Positions 1,570 through 29,831 of a DNA stretch of 62,388 nucleotides are shown here, in pieces. The notes under the pieces were generated by a model, which saw only the letters and a list, made by a program, of their open reading frames with translations, made no database searches and was not told the origin of the DNA. A program made the position numbers and the translations under genes. The stretch comes from a virus. Lineage: Duplodnaviria; Caudoviricetes. The stretch spans positions 1 through 62,388 of IMG/VR virus record IMGVR_UViG_3300010376_000037, one strand, 5' to 3'. Position 1 is the first letter of the stretch. Each line of letters begins with the position of its first letter.

Positions 1570-1860
1570 CTAGCTACCCGGCAGACCATCGCACGTGGTC
1601 CACAGCGCTGAGAACAGCAGCTTGGCCAAGACCTCACGCGACGCCCGGTGCGGCCACGACCTCACCACCGAGGCCAGTGCGAGGCTCAGCACGAACGCCA
1701 TCTCGGTAGGCTCGCCGTCGCACTTGGCGTGCACCGCGTCGACCACCTGATTGGCCAGGGCGCTGAGCCGCAGCTCACGCAGCCCGGCGACGCGCTCTGC
1801 TCGCTCGGCACTCTCTGCAGGATCGGCTAGCTCAGTGCCACCGGCCCCCTCGATCATCAC
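1570..1860 (-). CDS. Hypothetical protein
   Basis: ORF co-oriented with neighbours; start uncertain. Confidence 0.5.
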   Translation of the reverse strand: MMIEGAGGTELADPAESAERAERVAGLRELRLSALANQVVDAVHAKCDGEPTEMAFVLSLALASVVRSWPHRASREVLAKLLFSALWTTCDGLPGS

Positions 1861-1899
1861 GGCCCGCTCTATCTGCTCGGCGCACTCGCGAGCCTGCGG

Positions 1900-2133
1900 C
1901 TAGTCCTTACCGACCTGCGACATGTCCTGCAGCGGCTCGGGCAGCTCGTTCTCGTGCTCCATCGTCCACGGCTCCGGCGGCATCCCGGCATAGGCGTGGA
2001 AGATGTAGTTCTCCCGGTTCAGCGGCACCTCGTTGTTGAACATCCAGTTCAGCACCGCGTCACCGGTCCGGTGCTGCGCCAGCTGTGATCGCAGCTCACT
2101 CTCCGGTGTCTGGCCCTGACTCCTCATCGCCAT
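1900..2133 (-). CDS. Hypothetical protein
   Basis: 77-aa ORF with protein-like composition, overlapping the end of the 693-aa gene. Confidence 0.6.
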   Translation of the reverse strand: MAMRSQGQTPESELRSQLAQHRTGDAVLNWMFNNEVPLNRENYIFHAYAGMPPEPWTMEHENELPEPLQDMSQVGKD

Positions 2134-4177
2134 TGTCGACTCCTGTAATCCAGCTCGGCGGCTTCAGCCCCTTGGCGTGCCTTACGATAGCCTCTCTTCT
2201 CTCATCTGGGGTTTTGTTACGCCATTCGCCACGATTTTTCCAAATACTGGCGATGTGCTGCACGAACTTCGAATCGCGCCGTTGCTCGGGCGAGAACAGC
2301 CCGCGGATGCCCTCCCAGGTCACGCTCTGCAGCTCCCTGGGCAAGACCTTCAGATCCTCGGCCGCCCGCCGGTAAGCCTCGGCGTACAGCCCGTACAGCC
2401 CCTTGTTGCCGAGGGTGTCGTTGTTGGCGGCGCCGACCGCGCCCGCCTTGGTGCTGGTGCCGAGCCCGTGGCCGACCTCCAGCGCGCTTGACCCGAGCGG
2501 CTGCAGCAGCGCCGCGGCGATCGCGTGGGTGTCGATGGTGACGTCGCCGTGCGGTGCGTCGTGGGCGATGATGTTGTTGTAGAAGTTCCGGATCTTGTGG
2601 TTCTTGCCCATGATCCGGGAGATCGTCTCCAGGCTGCCGTCGCGCAGCGCCTCCATCGCCTTGGAGATCTCCTTGAACGAGCCCCAGCTCACCTTCCTGG
2701 GTGTCGTCGCCTCCTTCAGCTGTCCTTTGCGCTTGCCGCTCGTGTAGTACTTCGCCGGCACCATCGAGGTGGACCCGAAGTCGCCTTCCGGATTGACGAT
2801 GCGGTAATCGCGCGGGTTGTGGGCCTCGTCGTGCCAACGGGCCCAGACCGACTGCTCATAAGGGTCGGTCAGCTGGCTGTAGTCGGTGGTTTTGAATTTC
2901 TCCTTCAGCCCCTCCAGCTTGTCGATCTGCGCCGGCAGCTGGCGCATCTTGTCGCTGACCGGCAGGCCCTTCGCCTCCCGCTTGCGGATGCGGTCGGCGT
3001 GCGCGAGGCGAACCCCTTGGATGTAGCGGTCAGCGTAATCACGCATCTCCGGGGTAAAGTAAAAGTTGCTGCCCTGCTTGGTGGCTGCCTGATTGATGTC
3101 GAGCAGCCGCTTGGCCAGATCGACGTTCTGGAACCAGTCCTTCTGCGGCGACAGCGACGCCATCATCGCGGCGACCTGTTCCGGCTTCAGGTTGTATTCC
3201 CTGGCCCACTTGTGGGCGAGGCCGTTAGCACCGGCATACCAGAGCTTGGCCCGACCGACGACGCCGGGACCGATGTCCGGATGCGCGCCCATCTTGCGGT
3301 AGAGCCACTTCAGATTGTCGCTGAGGTGGTTGATGAACCGCTCGGTGATGACGTCCGGGTTGTCGCTACGCAGGTGCTGCAAGGCCGGGTAGTTGGCCTT
3401 GATCATCGCCGCGTTCTTGTCCCAGGCCTCTTTCGCCCGCTGCATGCTGTCGAGGCCGATCGACAGCCCGTTGGTGGCGTGCGCGTCGACGCCGCTCTTG
3501 CGCTGCTCGGGGTCCGACGGGATGCGGGTCGAGATGCGCTTGGCGTCCTGGCTCTGGGTCTGGTCGAGCACGCCCCGCAGCAGCGGCGACATCGGCGGCC
3601 CGGCCGCCGCCTGCTGCTGCGCCTGAGTGGCGTCCAGCACCTGCCGCAGCGCGTCGCTGCCGCCGCCATACTCCGGCACCGGAGGCGCCAGCGCCGAGGC
3701 GGCGCGCAGCCGGTTGCGCAGCGAGAGCTGCCCGGTCATGGGGTTCTGGCGGAACTGGGTGACGTCGGTCGGGCCACCGCCACCAGCGAGCATACCCGCC
3801 GGCATGTCTGGCGCGGGCGCGAGTTGCGCCAGCTGCCGCGAGCCCGGCTGCTGCGCCTCGGCGGACGACGGGCCGGTGGGTACGTCCAATAGTGCGCCCG
3901 TCAAAGGCTGCGGCGGCTGCGGCGGCGTCTGCACGCCCGGCGTCGGGCCCATCGGCCCCATCATCCGGCGCAGCGCCTGCTGCGGCGGCCCGGAGATCGC
4001 CCCCAGCCCCGGCTCCGGCATCGGCGGCTGGATCGGCGCCATCGGTGGCGTGGCCGGCGTCTGCCACAGCGGGTCGGTCAGCTTGGCCAGCGGATCGAGC
4101 TGGCGGCGATACTTCTCCAGCGGCCCCTCGGTCTGCGGCACCTGCGGGAACGGAATCGGACCCAGGCGGTCGCTCAT
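2096..4177 (-). CDS. Large protein with Pro/Gln-rich N-terminus and C-terminal helical DNA-glycosylase-like (DUF7178-like) domain
   Basis: Motif series LWY..AAMMASLSPQKDWFQN..KIRNFYNNI..VTIDTH..YAEAYRRAA..PRELQSVTW recalls a conserved phage domain; ATGA overlap with the upstream gene. The CDS is secure, the function tentative. Confidence 0.6.
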   Translation of the reverse strand: MSDRLGPIPFPQVPQTEGPLEKYRRQLDPLAKLTDPLWQTPATPPMAPIQPPMPEPGLGAISGPPQQALRRMMGPMGPTPGVQTPPQPPQPLTGALLDVPTGPSSAEAQQPGSRQLAQLAPAPDMPAGMLAGGGGPTDVTQFRQNPMTGQLSLRNRLRAASALAPPVPEYGGGSDALRQVLDATQAQQQAAAGPPMSPLLRGVLDQTQSQDAKRISTRIPSDPEQRKSGVDAHATNGLSIGLDSMQRAKEAWDKNAAMIKANYPALQHLRSDNPDVITERFINHLSDNLKWLYRKMGAHPDIGPGVVGRAKLWYAGANGLAHKWAREYNLKPEQVAAMMASLSPQKDWFQNVDLAKRLLDINQAATKQGSNFYFTPEMRDYADRYIQGVRLAHADRIRKREAKGLPVSDKMRQLPAQIDKLEGLKEKFKTTDYSQLTDPYEQSVWARWHDEAHNPRDYRIVNPEGDFGSTSMVPAKYYTSGKRKGQLKEATTPRKVSWGSFKEISKAMEALRDGSLETISRIMGKNHKIRNFYNNIIAHDAPHGDVTIDTHAIAAALLQPLGSSALEVGHGLGTSTKAGAVGAANNDTLGNKGLYGLYAEAYRRAAEDLKVLPRELQSVTWEGIRGLFSPEQRRDSKFVQHIASIWKNRGEWRNKTPDERREAIVRHAKGLKPPSWITGVDNGDEESGPDTGE

Positions 4178-6012
4178 GGTACCCCAGCTTTGTGGTCGCG
4201 CAGCGCGTCAGCACCCGCTTCCACCATTGCCGGCAGCCCGTTGCGCCTGACGATGTGGAGCGTGCGCGGATCGAACACCACGTAGTTGTGGCTCACCTTG
4301 GACATCGCCTGCTGGTGATAGGCCCGCTCCTTCTCGATGTCCTTCGGGTCAGCGCCCATGGCGTGCATCATCAGGATGCGTCCCTCCAGGCGGCGCGCCT
4401 CCTCCAAGTGCTGCCGGCTGTTGTGGTCGGCGTAGCGGATGCCGGGGATGCCGATCTTCAGCAGCGTCCTCGCGCCATGCACCGGATCATTGTCGCCGAA
4501 CACATTAACTGAGGCGAGCCGGTGCACCTGTTCGCCCGTGCGGTGTCCGGACTCCTCCTCCTCCATCCCAGCATTGGCGAGCTGGTTACGCACGTAGTCA
4601 CTCTGCTCGGTGAGCGGACGGTCCCAGTCCAGCAGGTGCTCCGGATGCACGTGCAGCTCGCTCTCGTAGAGGCTGCCCTCGGTCTTTCGGAAGTCGTCCG
4701 GGTTCAGCTGCTGTAGTACCACATAGGCCTGGATGTAGCGCTGCGCGGTGCGCAGATCGGCCGGCGAGCCGGTCAGCCGCGCCAGCCCGGCCGTCGTCTG
4801 ATACGACCGCTCCAGCCGCTCGATCGCGGCAGCCGCCGAGATGTTCTCCTCGTCCATCATCTCAGCCACGCCATGGATCGCCAGCGAGCGCGGGTCCATG
4901 CGATCGAATTTCGGCACCTTGCCCTGATAGGTCGCCCCGGCCGACAGGTCGTCGCGGTAGCGCTGCGCCACCTTCTCGTTGCCCGCCTGATAGATGCCGT
5001 GGCCGAACATCTGGGCGCCCTCGCCCGTGCCGATCTTCTTCAGCATGAACTCGCCCAGCGGATTGGCGCGCGTCGGCTCATACTGATGCGGCGTGCCGTG
5101 GTGCACGCTGATCGGCGCAGCGGTCCTGATCAGCTGGCCACTGCCATAGGCCTCCGGACCGGGCGCCGTCGGCACGTTGCCGCGCGCGTCGATCTGCGCC
5201 AGCGCCTGCCGCTGCAGCTGCTCGCCCTGGTCATAGTCGGTGATCGGCTGGCCATCGAGCGGGCTGTACGCCCCGGCCTGCAGGTCGTGCACCATGTGCA
5301 CCACGTCAGGCCGGCCGCCGTTGTGGGCCTTGAAGACCTCGCGGTCCCACCCCTCCGGCGCATACTCGTCGTTGAACGGCAGCCGCGACACCGCGCGGAA
5401 GCCCGACTGGCTGTAGATGTCCGGCAGCACAGTGTCGAACGCATCGAGCCGCCGCCCGCCCTGGCTGGTGGCGAGGTCGAGCATCGAGCGGGTCACGTTA
5501 CGGTAGGGCGCCTTCGGGTGCTTGAAGACGCTGACGATGTCATCGCCCTTCAACGCGAATCCGGCATCGCCCTCCGGCGTGCTGAACATCCGCATGTTGC
5601 GGTAGTCTTCAGCTGGATACTGGGTGACAGCCGCACCGGCTCTGTGCGCCGCCTTAGCCGCGCCAATTGCGCCGTGGAACGCATCAGCTGCTTCGGGATG
5701 CAGCTCGTGATAGGTCGGGTTGGAAGCGTCGCGATACTTGGCCTTCGGCGTGAAGACCGTCTTGACCGGCCCGATGCCTAGACTAGATGCCTCAGTTCTT
5801 CCCGGGCTTCTGCCACTGTAATTCCCTTGTCCTTGGCCAGCTTGTGCGCCAAGCGCTCCAAGGTCTTGTCCGCCTCCCGCGCTTCCTCCGGGGTTACCTT
5901 GTAATGATGCGGCGGTTGCCGGCTCAGCTGCTGGCTGCCCTTGGGCGAGTTGGCCACTAACGCCTCCTGACGTTGCCAGCGGATACGGGATGGTGCCGAG
6001 ACTCTGGCTCAT
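4174..6012 (-). CDS. Polyvalent protein: GNAT-like domain plus ADP-ribosyltransferase-like (ART-PolyVal) domain
   Basis: GFALKGDDIVSVF..GGRRLDAFDTVLPDIYSQSGF..PDVVHM (GNAT-like), then HHGTPH..IGTGEGAQMFGHGIY..GIPGIRY..NYVVFD (ART-like). Confidence 0.68.
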   Translation of the reverse strand: MSQSLGTIPYPLATSGGVSGQLAQGQPAAEPATAASLQGNPGGSAGGGQDLGALGAQAGQGQGNYSGRSPGRTEASSLGIGPVKTVFTPKAKYRDASNPTYHELHPEAADAFHGAIGAAKAAHRAGAAVTQYPAEDYRNMRMFSTPEGDAGFALKGDDIVSVFKHPKAPYRNVTRSMLDLATSQGGRRLDAFDTVLPDIYSQSGFRAVSRLPFNDEYAPEGWDREVFKAHNGGRPDVVHMVHDLQAGAYSPLDGQPITDYDQGEQLQRQALAQIDARGNVPTAPGPEAYGSGQLIRTAAPISVHHGTPHQYEPTRANPLGEFMLKKIGTGEGAQMFGHGIYQAGNEKVAQRYRDDLSAGATYQGKVPKFDRMDPRSLAIHGVAEMMDEENISAAAAIERLERSYQTTAGLARLTGSPADLRTAQRYIQAYVVLQQLNPDDFRKTEGSLYESELHVHPEHLLDWDRPLTEQSDYVRNQLANAGMEEEESGHRTGEQVHRLASVNVFGDNDPVHGARTLLKIGIPGIRYADHNSRQHLEEARRLEGRILMMHAMGADPKDIEKERAYHQQAMSKVSHNYVVFDPRTLHIVRRNGLPAMVEAGADALRDHKAGVP

Positions 6013-6025
6013 GAGCCGGCACCAT

Positions 6026-6936
6026 ACACGCGCTCTTACTCATCGGCACACTCTCGAACTTCGGCTCGCACACGTATCTCGGCACTCGCGCGGTGAACGG
6101 CTCACTCAGGTCTTTCGGCACCCACATTTGTCACGGTTCACTCCGTTCAAGCGGCACCCTCATTCATCACGGTTCACTCTGTTCCTTCGGCACTCGCATG
6201 CAAGCCGGTTCGCACTCCCATAACAGCACTCTCTAACCAAACGGCTGCGTTCAGTTTCTTCGGCACTCACAGCGTCCACAACTCGCTCTTCTGTATTTGG
6301 CACTCACAGCTTCCGCGACTCACTCGTCGGTGGCAGCACCCTCAGGTACGTCGGCCACTCCGCTCAGTCGGAACACTCCACCTGTTCGGTTCACTCTATA
6401 CAGCCGGCACTCACATCCGACCCGGTTCACTCCCCATCTTCAGCGCGCTCTAAACCGTCGGATCGCTCCTCATCGTCGGCGCCCACAAACTTGACGACTC
6501 GCTCCGTTCTCACGGTTCACTCAGCGCCAACGGCTCGCTCCATCACATCCAAAACCTTCCGCCCCCGCGGCTCGCTCCCAGGTTTCGGCACCCACTGTCT
6601 GATCGACTGCTCGACATTCTCGGCACCCGCTGACCGTTCGGCTGCTCTGCATTCTCGGCGCCCTCTACCCGATACGACTGCTCGACAGTCTCGGCGCCCT
6701 CTCTCCCCCACGGCTCGCACATCCTCACCGGTACCCTCTTCTAATCGGCTCGCTCCTCAGTTTCGGCACACACAAACACCGCGGCTCGCTCCGCTATTTC
6801 GGCACCCACAAACTTGACGACTCGCTTACCTGTATCGGCACACACCTTCTTGGCGGCTCGTTCGGGGGTTTCGATACCGTCACTCGACCCGGCTCGCTCT
6901 ATCGTTTCGGCACACTCACGATTTTTCGGCTAGCTC
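6026..6936 (-). ncRNA. TIGR-like dual-repeat array 1 (about 25 units of 36 nt)
   Basis: Plus strand alternates CGGYTCRCTC and CGGCACYCWC separated by 8-nt (occasionally 7 or 9) variable segments, e.g. cggcacactc tcgaactt cggctcgcac acgtatct cggcactcgc gcggtgaa cggctcactc. Strand inferred from flanking genes. Confidence 0.88.
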
Positions 6937-6948
6937 GAATTGTGGACA

Positions 6949-7131
6949 TCATCGATCGTATCCTGCCAGCCATACTTCTTTCTGCTCGTCTGTAAGATCG
7001 TCTGGCGGCACGCGGGGCTGTTTGTCGAGATCGGCCTTGATGCCCATCTTATAGACGCGCTTCCACCAGCTTCGATCGCTCACGTTTCGGCCTGCATCCC
7101 GTCCAGCATGCGTCTGCTGCGGCGCCCTCAC
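6949..7131 (-). CDS. Small protein, possibly Rmf/CrpP-like fold
   Basis: GTGA overlap with the stop of the Nop-domain gene; RVYKMGIKA...QKEVWLAGYD resembles the Rmf-like pattern. Confidence 0.5.
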   Translation of the reverse strand: MRAPQQTHAGRDAGRNVSDRSWWKRVYKMGIKADLDKQPRVPPDDLTDEQKEVWLAGYDR

Positions 7132-8483
7132 GCACGTCGGCCCTGCGGATACTGCGCCCGCGCCTTCGCCTCAGCCAACTCAGGCACCAGCTCCAGGTTC
7201 GGCACCTCCAGCCGATGCGCGTGACCCGGCACATTCTCCAGCACATACGGGAACGGCGGCAGCCGCTGGTAGGTGGTCCAGTAAAGCACCTCATGGAAGT
7301 GCGCCAGGAACAGCTTCACCGCACGCCGCTGCGCCCGCAGGTGAATCCGCGCAGGCGGCAGCATCCCCTGGCTGTACCACTTGAACGCGTCAGTGTTCGG
7401 GCTGAACCGCTTCTCCTCCAGCGACGTCCTCGCCTGCTCGGCATACAAATGCTGCTGGTTGCGCGCCGTCTCCCAGTCCTTCCGCGACTTATACAGCTTG
7501 CCGTAGAAGTCGTCCGGCCGGTTAGACACCTTAACAAAGCTGTCACCGATCAGAAAGCACAGCCGCTTCAGCGACGCGTTCCACGGCCGCTTGGCCAGCC
7601 CCTTGATCACCGCGGCGCGGCTCATGTCGACCTCGCTGGTCTCGCGGTCGACCAGCCGCAGCCGGATGCGCTCGGGGCTGGAGTTCACCGCAGCGCACAT
7701 CCGGAGGAACTGGTCCTCCGACACCTCGGCGCCGCGCCTGCGCTTGCCGCTGCCGTCATCGCTCAGCACCTTGTCCACCAGATCAGTGGCCTTCGCCGTG
7801 CCCAGCCACTTGTTGGTCGGATCGAGCCCGGCGAAGCGCCAGATGTGGCCGACCGTCGGGGCTTTGGTGATGTCGATGTTGGCTAAGAGGCCGGCGGCGA
7901 TCACCGGGCCGATGCCCTTGTTGCTGCGCGCCCATACGCCAGCCGTGTGGCTGCCGCTGTAGTAGTCGAGCGCCGAGCGGATCTGCTTCTCCAGGTGCTC
8001 CTCCTGGCCATACAGCCACTCCAGCACGTCATGCGGCTCGGCGGTCCAGAACTCCTTGCCGGTCTCGGTCGCAGTCTTCTTCGGCTCCGCCAGGGTACGC
8101 ACCTGATGCGCTGAGCGGATGCGGTTCTCCTGCATCGAGTAGTAGGCATCGACCAGGAAGCGCGCCTCGCTCTGGCCGAGCGTGCGGCTGGCCTGCTTGA
8201 GGTCGCCGGTCAGCTTGGCGAGCGGCGTTAAGAGGCCCGGGTCGGCGGTCGCGGTCATCTGCTGGTAGAGCGCATCGAGGCGCTGGAACAGCCCGACCAT
8301 GATCTCGCGCGGCGCGCCGCTGCTGTGGCGCAGGATGTCCATCGCCTGGATCACCAGATCCAGCGGCTCGCTGTCGAGGAAGTCCTCCGGGCCCTGCGGC
8401 TCGTCGGGCGGCGGAGGCGGTGGTGGCGCGGCGCCCTTGCCGCCGCCGTTCTTACTGCGTCCTGTGGTGGTCGGTGTTCTCAC
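7128..8483 (-). CDS. tasA: TasA-like Nop/IS110-C-terminal-domain RNA-binding protein
   Basis: Coiled-coil region (LVDAYYSMQENRIRSAHQVR..EEHLEKQIRSAL), then KGIGPVIAAGLLANIDITKAPTVGHIWRFAGLDP..RPWNASLK..HLRAQRRAVKLFLAH. No RuvC/DEDD or HNH motif seen. RBS AGGAG; flanked on both sides by 36-nt arrays. Confidence 0.85.
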   Translation of the reverse strand: MRTPTTTGRSKNGGGKGAAPPPPPPPDEPQGPEDFLDSEPLDLVIQAMDILRHSSGAPREIMVGLFQRLDALYQQMTATADPGLLTPLAKLTGDLKQASRTLGQSEARFLVDAYYSMQENRIRSAHQVRTLAEPKKTATETGKEFWTAEPHDVLEWLYGQEEHLEKQIRSALDYYSGSHTAGVWARSNKGIGPVIAAGLLANIDITKAPTVGHIWRFAGLDPTNKWLGTAKATDLVDKVLSDDGSGKRRRGAEVSEDQFLRMCAAVNSSPERIRLRLVDRETSEVDMSRAAVIKGLAKRPWNASLKRLCFLIGDSFVKVSNRPDDFYGKLYKSRKDWETARNQQHLYAEQARTSLEEKRFSPNTDAFKWYSQGMLPPARIHLRAQRRAVKLFLAHFHEVLYWTTYQRLPPFPYVLENVPGHAHRLEVPNLELVPELAEAKARAQYPQGRRA

Positions 8484-8498
8484 TATCAGCTCCTATGT

Positions 8499-8900
8499 TG
8501 GGTCACTCTGGGGATTGGGCACTCTCTCCCGGATCGGTTCACTCATGCTCAACGGCGCACTCGCGATTGTCGGTTCACTCTTCTTCATCGGCACCCGCAT
8601 CAAGGGCGGTTCACTCGGGGGCTGCGGCACTCGCCATGCCATCGGTTCACTCTCTTCCTGCGGCACTCTCGGATCATTCGGTTCACTCCGGGCTGTCGGC
8701 ACACGCGGCGATCGTGGTTCGCTCCATCTCATCGATGCACTCAAGCTCGTCGGCTCACTCCTTGTTCTCGGTGCCCTCCAGCACGCTGGTTCACTCACGG
8801 CAATCGGCACGCACCAAGCTTTCGGCTCGTTCGGGTGGGACGGCACTCGCGTCAAACACGACTCGCACCCAACTCACGGCACCCTCAGTTTGCACGGCTG
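8499..8900 (-). ncRNA. TIGR-like dual-repeat array 2 (about 11 units of 36 nt)
   Basis: Regular 18-nt period: cggttcactc ttcttcat cggcacccgc atcaaggg cggttcactc gggggctg cggcactcgc catgccat cggttcactc; lies directly upstream of the Nop-domain gene. Confidence 0.9.
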
Positions 8901-8921
8901 GGTTCTGTTGGGCTGAGTTGG

Positions 8922-8949
8922 AGCTTACACGCGGCGCCCTGCGAGTCAA
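8922..8949 (-). promoter_or_regulatory. Putative sigma70 promoter for array 2 and tasA
   Basis: Minus strand TTGACT-16 nt-TAAGCT about 20 nt upstream of the first repeat. Confidence 0.5.
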
Positions 8950-9137
8950 CTGTAAATCTTAGCCTATCTTACCCCATCAGCCTCCTGGCAAGGCCTGATA
9001 GGTCGATAGAAAGACAGCAACGAAGCAGAATAGCTAGCTAAGGCACGGCACCCAGCAGCCACAGCACCAGCGCCGACGACCCCACCGCCAGCAGCAGCAC
9101 CGTCACGCCACCTACCGCAACAACGAACCAGACCGCA

Positions 9138-10838
9138 TCACACATGCACCACAATCGCACGCGCCGAAGCCGACAGGTGCACCACATACTCTTGCGTCTG
9201 GTCCATCGATCCCACCGCGTCCGCCGAATGTATCAGGTCAAACTCCTCCACCAGCTGCACCGCAGCACCGAACCGCAGCGTCACATCCGTCGCGTCACCG
9301 CCCAGCTCCTGCGCCGAGCGCCACAGCGGCACGATGAACCGCCCGTCCGAGGCCTGATACAGATCCCAGTCAGCGTCCGCCGGCAGCCCCTCGACGCTGA
9401 TCTCCAGCTTGCCCGGAGCAAACGTCCGGGTGCTGTTGCCCGGATCGGCGCACACCTCGCAGAGGTTGCGCAGCGCCGCTGCCGCCGGCCGCGGGTCTTC
9501 ACCGCCATGCATCGGATACAGCCCGCACAGGTAGACCGTGCCGTAGTCGAACAGCGCGTACCACCACAGCCCGACCTGCGGATCGAGCTTGCCGCAGCGG
9601 AACAGCGTGGTCAGCGTGTAGTAGGCGTCCCGCTCTCCGTCCCATCCGGACTGATCGGGTTTGTGCCCCTGCGAGTTGTAAAGGGTCGGGTGGAACTCGG
9701 TGAGATCTCCGGGGTGGTTGTCGTAGGCGAGCCGGATGCCGCTGATGTATTCGCTGACGGAGTATCCTGTATTGGGGACGTCTGGACTGGCGGGGGGATA
9801 GTAGTGTCCGTTACAACGCGCCATCGCTGCATTAATAGCGCCCATGTATTCGCCGCAGTAGCCGGTGATCCAACCCTCCGGATGAGGTGTTCCCGCGACA
9901 ATGCTTGGGCCAAGTACTCCCGCGCGATCTGCTGAACCCCACAGCTCATCCTGGATCGCCTTCGTGACGTCGACCGAGACTTCCCCCGACCCAAAGTTGG
10001 TGTTGGGCTCGTTGAGTCCTTCCAGCCACCTGATAGCACAGGCCGGATCGTTAGCGAGTGTTAACATTGATGACACATCCGCAGGGCTGCCATTCGCGCC
10101 GACACAGATCGACACCTCGGTGCCCGGCAGTGCGGCGACCACCTGCGTCAGCCACGGCTGCTGTATCTGCTCGCGGCCGTTGTAGTGGTATTCGCGGATG
10201 CGGAACGCGAAGCCGCTCTCGTCCGTTATCCAGTTTAACCCGGCGATAACGCTGTCGGGCTGGTAGTCGGCCGGGTAGCTGCCCCAGACGTTGCCGCTGT
10301 CGAGGCTGCTGAAGGTGTTGACGCCGAACAGCTCGACCAGCGAGTGGATGCGTTTGGCCTGCGTGCCGGTGCCGGGGCTCGGATCGGGGCCGGGCGGTCC
10401 GTCGGCGTTGGCCACCGTGTAGGTCATCGGCACGTCCTTGCTGGTGCCGACGCCGCCGGGCGGCACGTCATAGCCGCGCACGATCAGCGTCACCGGCCCG
10501 TTCGCCAGCTTGCTGCTGTCGAGCTGCAGGCTGTAGCGGCCGTCCACCGGCTGGGCGTCGTCGGCGCCCTTCTGGTCGCCCACCCAGGCAGTGATGTTGA
10601 CCCAGGTCGCGCCGGCCAAGCCGGTGACCTCGACCACGCCCGAGAGCGTGCTGCCCTCGGCCGGGCTGGCGACGGTCAGCGTGTCGGGATCGGGGCTGGG
10701 ATCTGGCGGGACCGGCTGGCCGCCACCTTCCAGCGCCGAAACGCGGCCCTCCAGGTCGGTCACCCTGGCGGCGAGCGCGTCGAACTCCTCCTGCGTCGGG
10801 ACATCGACGCCCTGCGGCGTCACGGGTGATTGGGCCAT
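9138..10838 (-). CDS. Ig-like domain plus clan GH-A-like glycoside hydrolase
   Basis: Short coiled coil, Ig-like TVASPAEGSTLSGVVEV segment, then LEGLNEPN (acid/base), NGHYY and LTEF (nucleophile); ATG 10838 follows GGGGAG. Confidence 0.65.
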   Translation of the reverse strand: MAQSPVTPQGVDVPTQEEFDALAARVTDLEGRVSALEGGGQPVPPDPSPDPDTLTVASPAEGSTLSGVVEVTGLAGATWVNITAWVGDQKGADDAQPVDGRYSLQLDSSKLANGPVTLIVRGYDVPPGGVGTSKDVPMTYTVANADGPPGPDPSPGTGTQAKRIHSLVELFGVNTFSSLDSGNVWGSYPADYQPDSVIAGLNWITDESGFAFRIREYHYNGREQIQQPWLTQVVAALPGTEVSICVGANGSPADVSSMLTLANDPACAIRWLEGLNEPNTNFGSGEVSVDVTKAIQDELWGSADRAGVLGPSIVAGTPHPEGWITGYCGEYMGAINAAMARCNGHYYPPASPDVPNTGYSVSEYISGIRLAYDNHPGDLTEFHPTLYNSQGHKPDQSGWDGERDAYYTLTTLFRCGKLDPQVGLWWYALFDYGTVYLCGLYPMHGGEDPRPAAAALRNLCEVCADPGNSTRTFAPGKLEISVEGLPADADWDLYQASDGRFIVPLWRSAQELGGDATDVTLRFGAAVQLVEEFDLIHSADAVGSMDQTQEYVVHLSASARAIVVHV

Positions 10839-10985
10839 GTTCTTCTCCCCCAAGCCGGTAGATGTGAGCCTCTCATAGCGATCGCAGCGCCGGCACAAGC
10901 GCGCGCCCATGAAATGTGACCATTCATGACCACGCGTGAAACAGATGCAGTAGCTCAGCGCAGGCGGCAGCCAGCGCAACCCATA

Positions 10986-11837: not shown

Positions 11838-12046
11838 GTCCGCCCGCCCCCTGGCGTCTGTTGCACCCGGTAGAGATCAGCCGGCGACTTGGTGAACGCC
11901 GGGTCGATGCTGCGGGTGCGGATCACCCGCTCGCCCTGCACCACCTGATAGGGATTGTTCGCCGGCACGTAGGCCTCCGGCCCTTCGGTGTGCGCCTCCG
12001 GCATGTCGGGGAACGCCTGGATGGCGGGGCCGCCCTCACCGCTCAC
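11834..12046 (-). CDS. Hypothetical protein
   Basis: Coupled by GTGA overlaps on both sides. Confidence 0.6.
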   Translation of the reverse strand: MSGEGGPAIQAFPDMPEAHTEGPEAYVPANNPYQVVQGERVIRTRSIDPAFTKSPADLYRVQQTPGGGRT

Positions 12047-12606
12047 GCGCGCCGCCCTGGCTGCGGTGGCGGCGGCTGCCGCGGCGGGCTCGGTGCTCCA
12101 GGTCGTTGCGGCGTCGGCGCGTGGCGCGGGTCAGCCGCTCGCTGCGGCTGCGGCGCTGCGGGCGCCGCCGGGGCTGCTGCAGGCGCCGCCTGCTGCGCCT
12201 GCGCGGCAGCTGCCCGCTGCCCGCTGCCCGGCGCCGCAACCAACGCCTCGGCGTCTTCCTGCGTCATCCCGAACTCACTGATCAGGCAGGCCAGCACACG
12301 CGGCTGTAAGGCGCCGTCGTCGCGTGCGATCACGAGACGTGCCTTGACGATCTCGGCGATGTTCGGCGCGGCCTCGTCCATGTGCTGGCTGATCACCGCA
12401 CCCGCATAGCCGCCCGCCAGGGCGACGTTGGTCAGCTCGGGCGGGCCGTCGGGCTGGCCATCCGTCGTGTAGGCGGCCTCGCGCTGGATGAAGCTGGCGG
12501 CCGGCTCGGCGTTGCGATGCGCAGCGACGCCCGCCTCGCCCGCGTCCTGCTGCCGCTCGCCGATGGTGCGCGCCTGCTGCCCGCTCAGTTGCTGGGTGTG
12601 TGACAT
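12043..12606 (-). CDS. Hypothetical protein with Pro/Ala-rich tail
   Basis: Strong RBS (GAGGAGGGGGAG) before ATG. Confidence 0.65.
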   Translation of the reverse strand: MSHTQQLSGQQARTIGERQQDAGEAGVAAHRNAEPAASFIQREAAYTTDGQPDGPPELTNVALAGGYAGAVISQHMDEAAPNIAEIVKARLVIARDDGALQPRVLACLISEFGMTQEDAEALVAAPGSGQRAAAAQAQQAAPAAAPAAPAAPQPQRAADPRHAPTPQRPGAPSPPRQPPPPQPGRRA

Positions 12607-12760: not shown

Positions 12761-13282
12761 TCAGCGGCGGGCTTTGGCCTGTGGCCGGTCAGGCTCCTCC
12801 CTTTCGGCACGCTCTGGGGTCGCGGCGTAGTTCGGCGCGTAGCCCTGCCGGAACGCCGGGTGATCGGCCGACGAGGCGCGGCTGCGCTCCTTATTATAAG
12901 TGGCGATCATCGCCTGCCACGCCTCGTGCGGCAGGTGCTCGGGCCAGCCGGCCTGCTGCGCCTCCCACAGGTGATGGCCGAGCTGCGGGATGCGCGGATA
13001 GCCCAGGCTGTAGCGGGGGCGCTCATCTGAGTCAGAACTCTCGCTGATGGCGGCTCGCTGTTCGTCGACGGCACTCGCATGGGCAACGGCTCGCTCTTTC
13101 GCCTCGGTACGCTCCGCTTCAACGGCCCAATCATGGGGTTCGGCACGCTCTTTCATCACGGCTCGCTCGCATGTTTCGGCGCTCTCTGAGGTACCGGCCA
13201 GTTCTGGCGCTACGGCACGCTCGCTCATCACGACCCGCTCCCTGATTTCGCTACCATCCTCCGTCGCGGCTCGTTCACTCAT
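12761..13282 (-). CDS. ORF whose N-terminal half is read through array 3
   Basis: ERA hexad repeats arise from the 18-nt period; the C-terminal half (YSLGYPRIPQLGHHLWEA..) looks like an ordinary protein. Confidence 0.4.
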   Translation of the reverse strand: MSERAATEDGSEIRERVVMSERAVAPELAGTSESAETCERAVMKERAEPHDWAVEAERTEAKERAVAHASAVDEQRAAISESSDSDERPRYSLGYPRIPQLGHHLWEAQQAGWPEHLPHEAWQAMIATYNKERSRASSADHPAFRQGYAPNYAATPERAEREEPDRPQAKARR

Positions 13283-13348
13283 CTCGTTGCTGTCGGACCC
13301 GGCGACTCGTTCCTATCCTTCGTTGCCATCTGATCTCGCGACTCGCTC
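13015..13348 (-). ncRNA. TIGR-like array 3 (about 9 units, more degenerate)
   Basis: cggctcgctg ttcgtcga cggcactcgc atgggcaa cggctcgctc tttcgcct cggtacgctc cgcttcaa; same period and orientation as arrays 1 and 2. Confidence 0.8.
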
Positions 13349-13503: not shown

Positions 13504-13990
13504 TACAACGCTCTTCCAATTCGGCACTCACATCGAGTTTCGACTAGCTCACCTCATTCGTTACCATCGTGAGTCGCGGCTGCTCTCCTCATTCGGCACC
13601 CTCCTGGGCAGCGGCTGCGTTCCGACGGTTCGATGCTGTCAAAGGTAACGACTCACTCGCTTTCTTCGGCTCTCACAAAGAAGCCGGCTCGCTCTCGTTT
13701 CCCGGCACTCTTACACCCAGCGGCTGCTCGCCCGGTTCGATGCGCTCGAACTTTGCGGCTCGCTTCTAACTACGTCACCATCCTGCTCACGGCTCGTTCA
13801 GGCTTGCTGGCACACTCACGCTCCCCGACTCGCTCTCACCCTACCGGCACTCTCCCCTACGACGGCTCGCTGGTTGCGCATGAACGCGACAGCCAGTCGC
13901 CTGAGCACGTCGCAGCGCACCCGACGCAGCGCCCGATCGCGACCGCGGCTCGCTCGTTTGACTCGGCACTCGCCCACATCCCGGCTCACC
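13504..13990 (-). ncRNA. TIGR-like array 4 (about 10 units, 13504-13872) plus a detached unit (13946-13990)
   Basis: cgactcactc gctttctt cggctctcac aaagaagc cggctcgctc tcgtttcc cggcactctt; detached unit cggctcgctc gtttgact cggcactcgc ccacatcc cggctcacc. Confidence 0.8.
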
Positions 13991-14192
13991 GGGTCGGGCT
14001 GGTGCCGGCCCGGCGCAGCCAATGGTCACACCATCCCCCGGGCGCGATCAAACCCTCCACCAGATGACAGCTGTGCGGCTTGCGGAAGTGCACGCAGCGG
14101 TCGCAGGTCATCGAGGGCGATGACGCCTTCACCTGATACTGCACGCTGTGCTTGCTGAGCTTTTGATGTCTCGGCCGAGGCCGATCATTCAC
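13986..14192 (-). CDS. HiPIP-like (high-potential iron-sulfur protein) domain protein
   Basis: VQYQ...CDRCVHF...CHLVEGLIAPGGWCDHW: four Cys with the HiPIP GWC signature. Confidence 0.7.
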   Translation of the reverse strand: MNDRPRPRHQKLSKHSVQYQVKASSPSMTCDRCVHFRKPHSCHLVEGLIAPGGWCDHWLRRAGTSPTR

Positions 14193-14431
14193 CCCGGAAT
14201 GCCGTGCGGTCCGTGATCGCTGTGCGCGGTCGCCGGCATCTTGCCGCCACCGCGGCTGATGTGCGGCGGCCCGGCGCGCTCGTGGTCACCCAGCGGCTCA
14301 TGGCTGACGCTCTCGCCACCGCGGCCGCCGTTCACCTCGGCCAAGCTGTCGCAGCCGAAATCCTTGGCCGGCATGATGCCGCCGCCCATCGCCATGTTCT
14401 TGCGCTGCCGGATTTCCTCGTTGTAGGCCAT
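14189..14431 (-). CDS. Hypothetical protein
   Basis: TGATG and GTGA coupling to neighbours. Confidence 0.65.
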   Translation of the reverse strand: MAYNEEIRQRKNMAMGGGIMPAKDFGCDSLAEVNGGRGGESVSHEPLGDHERAGPPHISRGGGKMPATAHSDHGPHGIPG

Positions 14432-14577
14432 CACTTACTCCCCTTCTTGCGCTTCTTCGGCACCCCGGCTGTGCGTAGCGCGGCAGCGACAGCCTGTCGC
14501 TGCGGATGCCCGGCCTCGACCATCTCACGTATGTTGCTAGTGATCACCTTGCGGCTTTTGCCCTTGGCGAGCGGCAT
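14431..14577 (-). CDS. Small basic conserved phage protein (48 aa)
   Basis: Manual translation MPLAKGKSRKVITSNIREMVEAGHPQRQAVAAALRTAGVPKKRKKGSK. Confidence 0.75.
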   Translation of the reverse strand: MPLAKGKSRKVITSNIREMVEAGHPQRQAVAAALRTAGVPKKRKKGSK

Positions 14578-19408: not shown

Positions 19409-20890
19409 ATGGCTGACATTACCCTCCGCCCGTATCAGGTCATCGACATCGAGCGGCTGCGCGATGCGTTCCGCCAGGGCGCCCGCGCGCCGCTCTACCA
19501 GCTCAGCACGGGCGGCGGGAAGACCGTGGTGTTCAGCCACGTGATCCGCTCCGCAATCGCTAAGGGCACCCGGGTGCTGGTCCTCGCCCACCGCCGCGAA
19601 CTGATCAAGCAGGCCTCCCGCAAGCTCGATGACCTCGGCGTGGCGCACGGCATCATCGCCGCCGACCTCGACCGCGACCACGACGCGCAGGTGATCGTCG
19701 CCTCGATCCAGACCGTCGCGCGTAGACTCCACACGCTGCCGCAGTTCGGGCTGATCGTGATCGACGAGGCGCACCACGCGGTCGCCGATACGTGGTCCAG
19801 TCTGCTGGCCACCCAGGACAACGCCCGGCTGCTCGGGGTCACCGCGACGCCGCAGCGGCTCGACGGCAAGGGCTTAGGCACGCACTGCGGCGGGCACTTC
19901 GACGCGATCGTCTGCGGCCAGGCGATGCAGACGCTGGTGGACGAGGGTTACCTCGCGCCGACCAAAGTGTTCATCCCCAGCGCCACGATCGACACCACCG
20001 GCCTGCGCACCGTCCGCGGGGACTGGGACGAGGGCGAGCTGGAGGAGCGGGCGGCGGGGGTGACCGGCGACGCGGTGGCGGAGTTCCAGGCGCTGCCCGA
20101 GGGCACCACGGCGATGGTGTTCTGCGTCACCGTGGCGCACGCCGAGCAGGTCGCGGCGATGTTCGCGGCCGCCGGCTACCGCGCCCGCTGCGTGCACGGC
20201 GGCATGTCGAAAGCCGAGAGAGACGCGGCAATTCAAGGGCTTAGCGACGGCGGGACGCAGGTCCTCACCTCGTGCGAGATCATCAGCGAAGGCCTCGACG
20301 TGCCGAGCGTCGGCTGCTGCATCCTGCTGCGCCCCACCAAGAGCCTGACAATGTGCCTGCAGCAGATCGGCCGCGGCATGCGGCCTGCCCCCGGTAAGAC
20401 GTTGATAGTATTGGACCATGCCAAGAACTGCGTCGCCCACGGCCTGCCCACCGAGGAGCGCGACTGGAGCCTGGACGGGGCGAAGAAGAAGGCCGGCGAG
20501 GTCACCCCGCCGCAGCCCTGGCCGTGCATCCAGTGCCACACGCTGAACGCGGCGAACCGCCGCGAGTGCTCGGAGTGCGGCGAGGCCAAGCCGTGGAGCT
20601 GCAAGCACTGCGGCTGCCTGAACCGGGCGCGCTGGGACAGCTGCTTCGAATGCGACGCGCCGAAGCCACAGCCGCGGCAGGTGCTGGAGATGGACGACGC
20701 GCCGATGCGTGAGCTGCAGCCGGCCGACAAGTTCGCCCGGATCACCCGGCTGACCTACACCCAGCTGCTGAAGCACCGTCGCACCGAGGAGGAGCTGCGG
20801 GCCTACGCCAAGGCGCGCGGGTTCAAACCCGGCTGGGTCTGGCATCGCTTGCAGGAGCAGAAGCAGAAATTCAGCACCGGGGCCCGTTAG
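19409..20890 (+). CDS. SF2 DEAH-box helicase with C-terminal zinc ribbons
   Basis: LRPYQ, STGGGKT, DEAHH, TAT, EGLDVP, QQIGRGMR and repeated CxxC pairs. Confidence 0.92.
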   Translation: MADITLRPYQVIDIERLRDAFRQGARAPLYQLSTGGGKTVVFSHVIRSAIAKGTRVLVLAHRRELIKQASRKLDDLGVAHGIIAADLDRDHDAQVIVASIQTVARRLHTLPQFGLIVIDEAHHAVADTWSSLLATQDNARLLGVTATPQRLDGKGLGTHCGGHFDAIVCGQAMQTLVDEGYLAPTKVFIPSATIDTTGLRTVRGDWDEGELEERAAGVTGDAVAEFQALPEGTTAMVFCVTVAHAEQVAAMFAAAGYRARCVHGGMSKAERDAAIQGLSDGGTQVLTSCEIISEGLDVPSVGCCILLRPTKSLTMCLQQIGRGMRPAPGKTLIVLDHAKNCVAHGLPTEERDWSLDGAKKKAGEVTPPQPWPCIQCHTLNAANRRECSECGEAKPWSCKHCGCLNRARWDSCFECDAPKPQPRQVLEMDDAPMRELQPADKFARITRLTYTQLLKHRRTEEELRAYAKARGFKPGWVWHRLQEQKQKFSTGAR

Positions 20891-21108
20891 GCCCCGCCAT
20901 CGCGGCGCGGCGGCGGCGGCACCTTCATCGCCTTCAGCCCTTCCTCCAGCACGATCTTGATCTGCGTGCTGAGGGGGCGCCGATGCTTCGCCGCCAGCAT
21001 GCGCAGCGTGGCCATGAATGCCCGCTCCAGGCGCAGCGTCGTCACGTCATAGACCGGCGGAGGTTTTGCCATCACATGGTTTGTGGTGATGTCTATTGAC
21101 ATCGCCAC
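20887..21108 (-). CDS. Arc-like ribbon-helix-helix regulator
   Basis: TTLRLERAFMATLRMLAAKHRRPLSTQIKIVLEEGL. Confidence 0.65.
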   Translation of the reverse strand: MAMSIDITTNHVMAKPPPVYDVTTLRLERAFMATLRMLAAKHRRPLSTQIKIVLEEGLKAMKVPPPPRRDGGA

Positions 21109-21145
21109 CCCATAGCATCATAGGCTGGCAGCAGCAACCGGAACC

Positions 21146-22081
21146 GTGATGCGCCACGAAGTCCACCCCGCCTGTGCCGCTTGGCCGCGCCCGTCCGAGG
21201 CGAAGTTTCAGGTGTTGGTGGCGGACATCCACAGGAATGGTCTGCTGAACCCGATGTGGCTGACCCCGGACGGCCTGATGCTGGACGGCAAGACCCGCGA
21301 GGAGGCCTGCGAGCAGCTTGGCATCGAGGGGCGTTACCTGACCTATACCGGCGACGACCCGATCGCCTTCGTGATCTCACAGAACAAGGTGCGCCGGCAC
21401 GTTACTGAGGTTGAGCTGGCGTTCGTCGGCGAAGAGCTGGCGACCCTCAAGCAGGGCCGACCAAGTAAACTTTCTCGCGAGAAACTTTTAAGTGAAACCG
21501 CCGAACAAGTCGCTGAGCAACTTGGGATACACAAGCTGCTGATCAGTAACGTCCGCACACTGAAGCGAGAAGGCGAGCCGAATATTATTGCGCTGGTGCG
21601 CAGCGGCAAAGTCGGCATCAAGAACGCGACGCCATACGTCTTGCACACGCCGCGCGAGGAACAGCGCAGTGCCGACGCCGAGACGGTCAAGAAAGAGGGC
21701 GCGCTGCTGCGCACACCGAAGAAAAACAAGCCCCGCATCACGATCAGCGGCAGCGACGCGGTCGGCGGGGCCAACGAGCGACTGATCGCCGTGGATACGG
21801 TGATCAAGATACTCCGCCCACTGGTGAGAGAGGTCAAAGATCAGGCGAGCCGTCACCCTGCCACGGTCAGTTTCACTGCCCTGCACAGGCTCGGTTCGTA
21901 CTTCGACCAGATCTTCAAGGCGTGGGCGAGTGGCGACGATGCGGCGGTTCGGCGGATTTCCGAGCATCTCGCCCGTGCAGAAATCCGCAAGGAGACCGGG
22001 TACTATGCTGCAAGCAGCAACCCCGACGATCCGACTGGCGAACAGCGAGACACGGGATCTTACCCCGCAACTCGCCGCTGA
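21146..22081 (+). CDS. ParB/Srx-like N-terminal domain protein with HTH
   Basis: HPAC..LVADIHRNGLLNPM..LDGKTR..FVISQNKVRRH. Confidence 0.7.
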   Translation: MMRHEVHPACAAWPRPSEAKFQVLVADIHRNGLLNPMWLTPDGLMLDGKTREEACEQLGIEGRYLTYTGDDPIAFVISQNKVRRHVTEVELAFVGEELATLKQGRPSKLSREKLLSETAEQVAEQLGIHKLLISNVRTLKREGEPNIIALVRSGKVGIKNATPYVLHTPREEQRSADAETVKKEGALLRTPKKNKPRITISGSDAVGGANERLIAVDTVIKILRPLVREVKDQASRHPATVSFTALHRLGSYFDQIFKAWASGDDAAVRRISEHLARAEIRKETGYYAASSNPDDPTGEQRDTGSYPATRR

Positions 22082-29460: not shown

Positions 29461-29831
29461 CTCCACGCCGGATCGATGAAGTAACGCCCGGGCACTACCG
29501 CTACCGCCGCGTCAAGGGCGGTCCGTGGATGCCCGCGGTGGTCAGCGTCGATGCCGGCATGATCTATATCGTCGAGGCCGACGAGCGGCTGCAGGTCTGC
29601 ATCGAGGCCACGGCGTTCGCCGATCTCGTGGTGTCGCTGACGATCGAGGGTGCGGCGTTCGACAGCCCGCTGCTCCGGGTGCTGTGGTTCGGCGAGCGGA
29701 TCAGTGCCGAGGAGTATGCGCACATGCTCCAGATGCTGGCCTGGGCGCGCGAGCACCATCCGGATCATCCGCTGAACCATCCCGACCGGCCGATCCGCTT
29801 ATCGGCCGTGCCGGTCACCGCAATCTTCTAG
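29457..29831 (+). CDS. Hypothetical phage protein
   Basis: PGHYRYRRVKGGPWMPA..ISAEEY..HPDHP; ATGA coupling. Confidence 0.7.
   Translation: MTPRRIDEVTPGHYRYRRVKGGPWMPAVVSVDAGMIYIVEADERLQVCIEATAFADLVVSLTIEGAAFDSPLLRVLWFGERISAEEYAHMLQMLAWAREHHPDHPLNHPDRPIRLSAVPVTAIF

Follow-up and report, generated by a model that had tools for sequence, protein, structure and literature searches.

The 62,388-bp virus record IMGVR_UViG_3300010376_000037 (Duplodnaviria; Caudoviricetes), analysed here over its full length and hereafter called the window, carries on its minus strand the gene tasA (7128..8483), which encodes a protein of 451 amino acids (aa). Its GTG start is preceded, at a distance of 6 nucleotides (nt), by the ribosome-binding site AGGAG, as read from the sequence (8490..8494, minus strand). 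The gene lies between two dual-repeat TIGR arrays: upstream of it is array U (8499..8899), with 11 units of exactly 36 nt each, and downstream array Dn (6026..6936), with 25 units. Here and below, units are given in minus-strand orientation. We consider it very probable that this locus is a dual-repeat TIGR-TasA system of a soil phage that acts by RNA-guided DNA binding and blocking.

In both flanking arrays, the unit consists of an edge repeat (GAGYG|ARCCG), an 8-nt spacer A, a loop repeat (GNGNGUGCCG) and an 8-nt spacer B, for a length of 36 nt. TIGR arrays are defined by two alternating repeats of 8–12 nt that are separated by short spacers and recur many times beside a tas gene (PMC12045711). 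Base autocorrelation, calculated for lags 1–80, was highest at lags 36, 18, 72 and 54 in the region 6026–6940 (0.463, 0.410, 0.397 and 0.359, respectively, with a mean of 0.278 and a standard deviation of 0.038) and at lags 36, 72, 54 and 18 in the region 8484–8910 (0.535, 0.515, 0.499 and 0.467; mean 0.268). No peaks at 18 or 36 were observed in two control sequences, the tasA gene itself (best value of 0.353 at lag 12) and a neighbouring gene (0.332 at lag 66), and Tandem Repeats Finder retrieved periods of 35–36 in the flanks. A previous annotation produced by a model from the sequence alone (the initial annotation) had described an 18-nt period with two alternating 10-nt repeats, 8-nt variable segments and 36-nt units, and had predicted autocorrelation peaks at 18 and 36 nt. 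Our reading of the units confirmed this description together with the counts of 11 upstream and 25 downstream units, position tables reproduced its two repeat consensus sequences, and the predicted peaks were found in both flanks and not in the control genes. Rfam models gave no match at E up to 1.

The two arrays differ in regularity. Array U starts with the half edge repeat AGCCG, closes with the degenerate edge repeat GAGTGACCCA, and has only half-units of exactly 18 nt. Array Dn has a full edge repeat at its start and the degenerate edge repeat GAGCGCGTGT at its end; of the 50 half-units counted, which do not include the closing degenerate edge, 9 have a length of 17 or 19 nt. The array contains 35- and 37-nt units, and in D8–D10 a 35-nt unit is present in three tandem copies that have diverged.

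The arrays are not restricted to the vicinity of tasA. Searching the window with a 26-unit profile, which matched the units of array U at E values of 1e-4 to 8e-9, we found three more of them, all on the minus strand. Array C (13509..13991) has ~11 units (1 + 10, a count read by hand) and is interrupted at ~13945–13873. Array D (13019..13348) contains 9 units with 36-nt spacing and overlaps the 5' part of the open reading frame (ORF) 12761–13282, and array E (1788..1901) has 3 units placed directly after the stop codon of the gene 1900–2133. The window contains in total five arrays with ~59 units, all on the tas strand, and no plus-strand profile match at E <1. Protein-coding genes separate arrays C, D and E from tasA. 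The system extends beyond the interval delimited in the initial annotation. Related viral loci display a similar organization: arrays were present in 10 out of 12 of them, with 197 profile matches that were all on the tas strand, and the whole records of five relatives contained 5–7 array clusters each, scattered as in the window.

Since GAGCGAGCCG is identical at 8 out of 10 positions to the edge repeat published for SpTIGR-TasH, the system of the Salicola phage CGphi29 (PMC12045711; PMC13421893; PDB 9w03, 9w04, 21kl), we assigned it as the edge repeat, with a predicted cut at GAGYG|ARCCG. Several features of the sequences all agree with this assignment: the half-edge array starts (of 14 starts listed for relatives, 13 have AGCCG), the degenerate-edge array ends, the ends shared by both repeat types, which begin with G-N-G (box D) and end with CCG (box C), and a covarying base pair of the edge repeats. 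In the more distant loci L009–L012, box C has changed from CCG to CCA jointly in the edge and loop repeats, and covarying shared ends of this kind are expected for a symmetric dimer (PMC12045711).

The covarying pair involves position 7 of one edge repeat and position 4 of the next edge which, in the processed guide, would join the two ends of the molecule. Two edge variants coexist in the window, C4/G7 and U4/A7, and wherever one gives way to the other, a chimeric edge preserves the cross-unit pair. The pair is kept in 27 of the 28 testable units of the window (C-G in 15, U-A in 11, U-G in one and U-U in one). We extended the count to 126 predicted 36-nt guides, taken from the window and from six other loci, and obtained 110 G-C pairs, 14 A-U, one G-U and one other combination. 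These included 14 double changes; the observed covariation score was higher than that of all 500 shuffles, and it collapsed in slid controls. Such edge-pair covariation has already been described by Faure et al. 2025 (legend of Fig. 6G), so that our result is a confirmation of a published feature and not a discovery.

The irregularities of array Dn might also be explained by a partly decayed locus, where an intact protein would coexist with many guides that are relics, neither processed nor bound any more, especially in arrays Dn, C and D, and with a minority of working ones. In addition to the 17- and 19-nt half-units, this explanation is favoured by badly degenerate repeats (e.g., GAAGGTTTTG and GACGGTATCG), by the fact that only 24 of the 36 units of the flanking arrays are fully canonical whereas the relatives L006 and L007 have almost perfect repeats, and by several profile matches in arrays Dn, C and D with E >0.01. 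However, array U is perfectly phased, the tas reading frame is intact and retains all 66 family-invariant residues, and the compensatory edge pair has been retained also across variant switches, which argues for continued selection. We therefore consider decay unlikely, although it keeps appreciable weight. By contrast, we see almost no chance that the periodicity is that of a protein-coding sequence in which 12 codons are repeated in tandem. Open frames do cross array U (three on the plus strand, of 205, 238 and 180 aa, and one of 120 aa on the minus strand), the ORF 12761–13282 enters array D and the tblastn similarity of relatives spans the array. However, the 17- and 19-nt half-units break all frames in array Dn, which no ORF spans, none of six tested array ORFs matches Pfam, variation shows no codon periodicity and stays within the 8-nt blocks, the intervening 10-nt blocks being constant, relatives have fully replaced spacers and unchanged repeats, an RNA base pair covaries across repeats, and the tblastn similarity is expected from the 20 constant nt out of 36.

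The protein encoded by tasA matched the NCBIfam model NF052498 (‘TIGR-Tas system RNA-guided endonuclease’) with 186.8 bits, well above the cut-off of 100, over 213 of the 215 model positions, and the same match recurred in a six-frame search of the record. The only Pfam match at E up to 1 was PF02371 (Transposase_20; 23 bits), corresponding to a helix-hairpin-helix motif at residues 187–228; neither a nuclease family nor a Nop family appeared among the Pfam matches at this threshold. At the sequence level, the protein also matched the solved TasR (9mty) and TasH (21kl), more strongly when the family profile was used (E values of 2.5e-15 and 2.7e-5, respectively). An AlphaFold2 model built from 32 relatives (mean local confidence, pLDDT, of 83.7; global score, pTM, of 0.71) predicted an all-helical structure, for which the Foldseek ranks 1–10 were all TasR or TasH chains with a probability of 1.00. 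With VIA-align, the TasH chains reached Z scores of 17.1–17.7 and TasR a Z score of 16.4 (root-mean-square deviation of 2.5 over 194 residues), as compared with ~12 for the IS110-family proteins IS621 and ISCro4 and at most 7.5 for unrelated chains. Concerning the box C/D snoRNP proteins (Nop5/Nop56/Nop58), no Nop5 chain was found among the 50 structural-alignment entries shown, although a distant fold similarity may exist. The initial annotation had proposed to compare the protein by hidden Markov model (HMM) and predicted structure with Tas and IS110 proteins, and in both comparisons Tas was the best match.

The structural alignments spanned model residues 100–433, where the coiled coil and the Nop domain are located (residues ~100–433), and left unaligned both the HNH part of TasH (residues 1–63) and the RuvC part of TasR (residues 1–110). 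In the region preceding them (residues 1–99), a disordered Lys/Gly/Pro-rich segment (~1–30) is followed by helices, with a single histidine and no cysteine, and an ESM Atlas search with residues 1–100 returned only structures with TM scores <0.5, none of them informative. Given that no nuclease family matched and that the alignments start only at residue 100–103, sequence and model indicate a TasA-type protein, without nuclease domain. The system type advanced in the initial annotation is thus supported by the NF052498 match, the TasH/TasR fold and the absent nuclease domain. It had also anticipated that ordinary annotation would name the gene an IS110 transposase, which holds for Pfam, for PHROGs (PHROG 4285 is labelled ‘transposase’) and for JGI (with the same label in the names of the cluster list) but no longer for NCBI, which now has a dedicated TIGR-Tas model. 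These labels, the PF02371 match and the Z scores of IS621 and ISCro4 could be taken to indicate an IS110-family insertion sequence with its transposase and bridge RNA in the phage, but this is extremely improbable, since the IS110 transposase model NF033542 gave only 24.3 bits (cut-off 140), there was no match to the DEDD/RuvC-like N-terminal domain (the IS621 alignment begins at its residue 125–127, past this domain), the flanks are multi-unit arrays and not a single bridge RNA, and tasA occupies a conserved syntenic place in related phages.

The core TasA of the family has ~275–290 aa, and the window protein is longer because of three additions: a clade-specific N-terminal extension of ~84–99 aa (at least 35 aa long in 15 of the 32 aligned relatives), an enlargement of the coiled-coil tip by 13 aa, and a helical insertion of 67–71 aa at residues 227–296, found in 17 of the 32 relatives. 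This insertion comes directly after the helix-hairpin-helix motif and, judging from the order of segments in Xu et al. 2026, would occupy the ‘wedge’ position. An ESM Atlas search with residues 222–300 showed that further viral proteins named ‘transposase family’ have this insertion too; the remaining matches were only generic small helical bundles. At the DNA level, soil-metagenome contigs of other Tas genes skip exactly 222 nt (7593–7814), corresponding to the 70-aa insertion, which is absent in many relatives. Towards the other end of the protein, H421 aligns with the processing histidine of SpTasH, H296, and is invariant in all 32 relatives. It is located, together with Y413, in a C-terminal loop whose residues 416–423 were modelled at pLDDT <50.

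What we know about this locus comes from its sequence and from models, and we infer the steps from transcription through repression from SpTasH, TaTasR, FpTasA and MbTasA. The arrays would be transcribed together with the leftward genes as long precursors. A TasA dimer would bind the ends shared by the edge and loop repeats, namely box D (G-N-G) and box C (CCG), and the precursor would be cut in the middle of the edge repeat, with H421 of the C-terminal loop and the aromatic Y413 as likely catalysts. This would release a 36-nt guide RNA (tigRNA) composed of 5'-ARCCG, 8 nt, GNGNGUGCCG, 8 nt and GAGYG-3', with its two ends paired together. Each ribonucleoprotein could then bind a 16-bp DNA site made of 5'-[spacer B][reverse complement of spacer A]-3', with one spacer per strand, and, lacking a nuclease, would block transcription or replication at that site without cutting it. 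FpTasA is known to bind 36-nt RNAs (PMC12045711), and RNA-guided DNA binding and transcriptional repression, with no cleavage of the target, have been reported for MbTasA (bioRxiv 10.64898/2026.09.09.750476). The ~59 guides of the window are found at conserved intergenic places of a single leftward gene block; more tentatively, guide processing might therefore also cut the polycistronic mRNA.

Several observations weigh against an active TIGR-TasA system of this kind. The initial annotation had pointed to a promoter candidate upstream of array U, TTGACT-16 nt-TAAGCT (8922..8949, minus strand; TTGACT at 8949–8944 and TAAGCT at 8927–8922). The sequence is present but weak, as TAAGCT matches TATAAT at just 3 of 6 positions, and a promoter consensus scan of the region 5700–9300 returned no promoter; the regions upstream of the matching arrays in three relatives could be aligned only loosely. 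In the same region we detected 3 terminator-like sites, compared with 2.3 expected by chance, and none of them at an array end, although a rho-independent terminator is only ‘typically’ present after the array in the published description of TIGR and is, therefore, not strictly defining. In the protein, Y413 is one residue off Y289 of SpTasH in the HMM alignment, and its position is occupied by tyrosine in 22 of the 32 relatives, by phenylalanine in 5 and by tryptophan in 5. The arrays of the window are more degenerate than those of relatives: twelve of the 36 units of arrays U and Dn are off-length or adjacent to a 9- or 11-nt edge, so some guides may be dead. In one relative, G005, 11 of the 20 array matches are opposite to the tas strand. 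This complete related phage (locus L024) carries an opposite-strand array at 20477–21472, ~7 kb from tas, which is the sole exception to co-orientation that we observed.

The search for targets provided further arguments of the same sort. From the published guide and target oligonucleotides of TaTasR we derived a pairing rule that gives the sequence of the target strand as spacer A and then the reverse complement of spacer B. Under this rule, the 36 guides of the flanking arrays had no site with up to 2 mismatches in the window, where ~1.2 were expected, and 240 guides searched against 277 kb of six related phage genomes had 2 one-mismatch sites, compared with 2.2 in re-paired controls. The guides of relatives searched against the window likewise gave nothing above chance. 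We also considered the opposite arrangement, for which we detected 3 one-mismatch sites in the window (3455–3470, 20956–20971 and 29654–29669, for guides U6 and U4), compared with 0.1 expected, and 7 in a 143-kb set, compared with 0.7, an excess that seemed significant in these smaller sets. We rejected it as chance: the 277 kb and 240 guides still gave 7 sites, and 12 re-paired controls gave 2.8 on average and 7 at most. We regard the host or competing mobile elements as the most likely location of the targets. Searches of public collections with 16-mers would be swamped by chance matches, as also pointed out by Xu et al. 2026, whereas in a single 5-Mb genome ~0.1 exact chance matches would be expected for all guides of the window together.

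The repertoire of guides has been almost completely renewed between related phages. Relatives with ~64–66% Tas identity have kept the repeats and share no spacer pair with the 36 pairs of arrays U and Dn, and no single spacer of these two arrays recurs in related loci. The near-identical contig pairs L002/L003, L004/L005 and L011/L012 share all their spacers. Among the 240 guides of six phages, single spacers were reused as A-A in 8 cases, as B-B in 6 and as A-B in none, whereas ~2 same-type repeats were expected from a hand estimate based on position-wise composition and ~0.9 from a uniform model. Eight of the 14 recurrent single spacers occur within one genome, always beside partner spacers that are unlike each other at no fewer than 4 of 8 positions. 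In array Dn, the units D4 (6827) and D13 (6504) have in common a 28-nt edge-spacer A-loop stretch with one mismatch, followed by unrelated B spacers. Although the events are few, these sequence patterns point to duplication and recombination inside arrays. We tentatively propose, as a possibility rather than as the expected outcome, that the arrays of this clade diversify by within-repeat recombination, reshuffling half-guides into new A/B pairs. If true, new 16-bp specificities would arise combinatorially, with no need for an adaptation machine. A single literature search on array evolution by duplication or recombination gave no TIGR paper on this topic among the matches listed.

Whole guides are also occasionally found in more than one genome. 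Array D has one guide (at 13096) that was found again, with 2 of its 16 nt changed, in an array of the relative G001 that is not syntenic (~45870, locus L016; TTGCCCAT with TCGACGAA or CCGATGAA); the shared guide could reflect a common target or a moved unit. The relatives G003 and G004 have three guides in common at 1–3 mismatches, compared with none at up to 3 mismatches in a swapped control. In addition to the window, reused single spacers were seen in arrays of G001, G004 and G005 (L014–L026). Concerning composition, the first base of spacer B is A in 63% of 195 guides and that of spacer A is G in only 10% of 193 (window and L002–L011), and the spacers have ~50% G+C, compared with 62–66% in the phage genomes.

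The genomic context is that of a phage, with helicase, primase, resolvase, tail-fibre, head-closure and major-head families in the window. Its G+C content is 65.6%, and every gene between ~1.5 and 17 kb is on the minus strand. Homologs of eight genes of this region (173–580, 1900–2133, 2096–4177, 4174–6012, 12043–12606, 12761–13282, 13986–14192 and 14189–14434) are syntenic in 3 or 4 of five relatives. Right after array Dn comes a gene for a 612-aa protein (4174–6012, minus strand; phrog_2563, with no annotated function), the place of which is kept in three of the five relatives. A gene for a 693-aa DUF7178 protein (2096–4177, minus strand) also follows array Dn, and its place is kept in four of the five. 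None of 10 neighbouring ORFs that we scanned matched the ParB family. In the case of the ORF 12761–13282 (minus strand), the 5' half is array D itself, and tblastn matches in four relatives also enter their own arrays. Since constant repeat blocks would produce this similarity over array D, the true gene probably starts after ~13019. Between array U and the upstream genes, the gene 9138–10979 (minus strand; 613 aa) has no Pfam or PHROG match and no tblastn match in the five relatives, and looks like an insertion specific to the window phage. The ORF 6949–7131, situated between tasA and array Dn, was considered as a possible gene of the system and rejected, as it had no Pfam match and no tblastn match in the five relatives.

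We found no close relatives of the window in the phage collection, by DNA or by protein, although this collection may leave out very near records, and none among genome representatives. A profile search of the latter detected 27 distant tas loci, mostly in soil metagenome-assembled genomes of Acidobacteriota, Chloroflexota, Alphaproteobacteria and others. Among three soil DNA sequencing runs, one contained the whole stretch (it is possibly the source of the record) and a second one identical small pieces of it; otherwise, only the conserved motif region of relatives was observed.

The TIGR-Tas family was published in 2025 (Faure et al. 2025, PMC12045711), and the exact protein studied here, with the same GTG start, is included in the sheet ‘ProteinInfo’ (‘all TIGR systems’) of Table S1 of that discovery paper. 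The system is, therefore, known and catalogued, and we do not present it as a discovery. TIGRFinder annotated 6,685 arrays around the published loci, including both sides of tas. What our analysis adds is the three further arrays, the conserved layout, the near-complete spacer turnover, and the reuse of single spacers with new partners. TIGR-Tas systems are of current biotechnological interest as RNA-guided DNA binders that are compact and need no motif; their natural targets and the gain of spacers are among the questions that the literature leaves open (PMC12045711, Discussion; Xu et al. 2026, Discussion). The locus, although not a new kind of system, is a rich natural example, with its many guides, its unusual TasA and its relatives of similar layout. 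This clade is a usable data set for the study of array evolution and, once the host is identified, for target search. It also illustrates that current labels do not fit a nuclease-free TasA, which is named ‘transposase’ in older resources and ‘endonuclease’ in the NCBI model.

Among the characterized systems, SpTIGR-TasH is like the one in the window in being phage-borne and in having dual repeats of 10 nt, spacers of 8 nt, and a guide of 5 + 8 + 10 + 8 + 5 = 36 nt. Its array alternates AAGCGAGCCA and AAGACAACCA, and its tigRNA5 consists of AGCCA, 8 nt, AAGACAACCA, 8 nt and AAGCG. The edge repeats are AAGCG|AGCCA in SpTIGR and GAGCG|AGCCG here (the 8 out of 10 identical positions mentioned above), box C being CCA in the former and CCG in the window, and TasH is the best structural match of our protein. 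However, SpTasH is a DNA-cutting protein with an HNH nuclease at its N-terminus, whereas the window protein has no nuclease domain, adds ~85–99 aa at the N-terminus and an insertion of ~70 aa, and is only 16–18% identical over the aligned fold. TaTasR (9mty; PMC12045711) shares with the window protein the Nop and coiled-coil fold (Z score of 16.4, 26% identity) and the logic of tandem-spacer guides, but differs in its active RuvC domain, its 9-nt repeats and 9-nt spacers, and its UG and CCA boxes. A published TasA system with 10-nt repeats and arrays upstream, downstream and between genes resembles the layout of the window, although here the neighbours had no ParB match and the conserved ones are the 612-aa and DUF7178 proteins. 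The functional models, compared by description, are FpTasA (from Flavonifractor plautii) and MbTasA, which are, like the window protein, Nop-only Tas proteins with flanking dual-repeat arrays. FpTIGR has 18 variable nt per guide, compared with 16 in the window, and whereas dual-repeat Tas proteins have been described as a compact Nop core with little variation (bioRxiv 10.64898/2026.09.09.750476), the TasA of the window reaches 451 aa.

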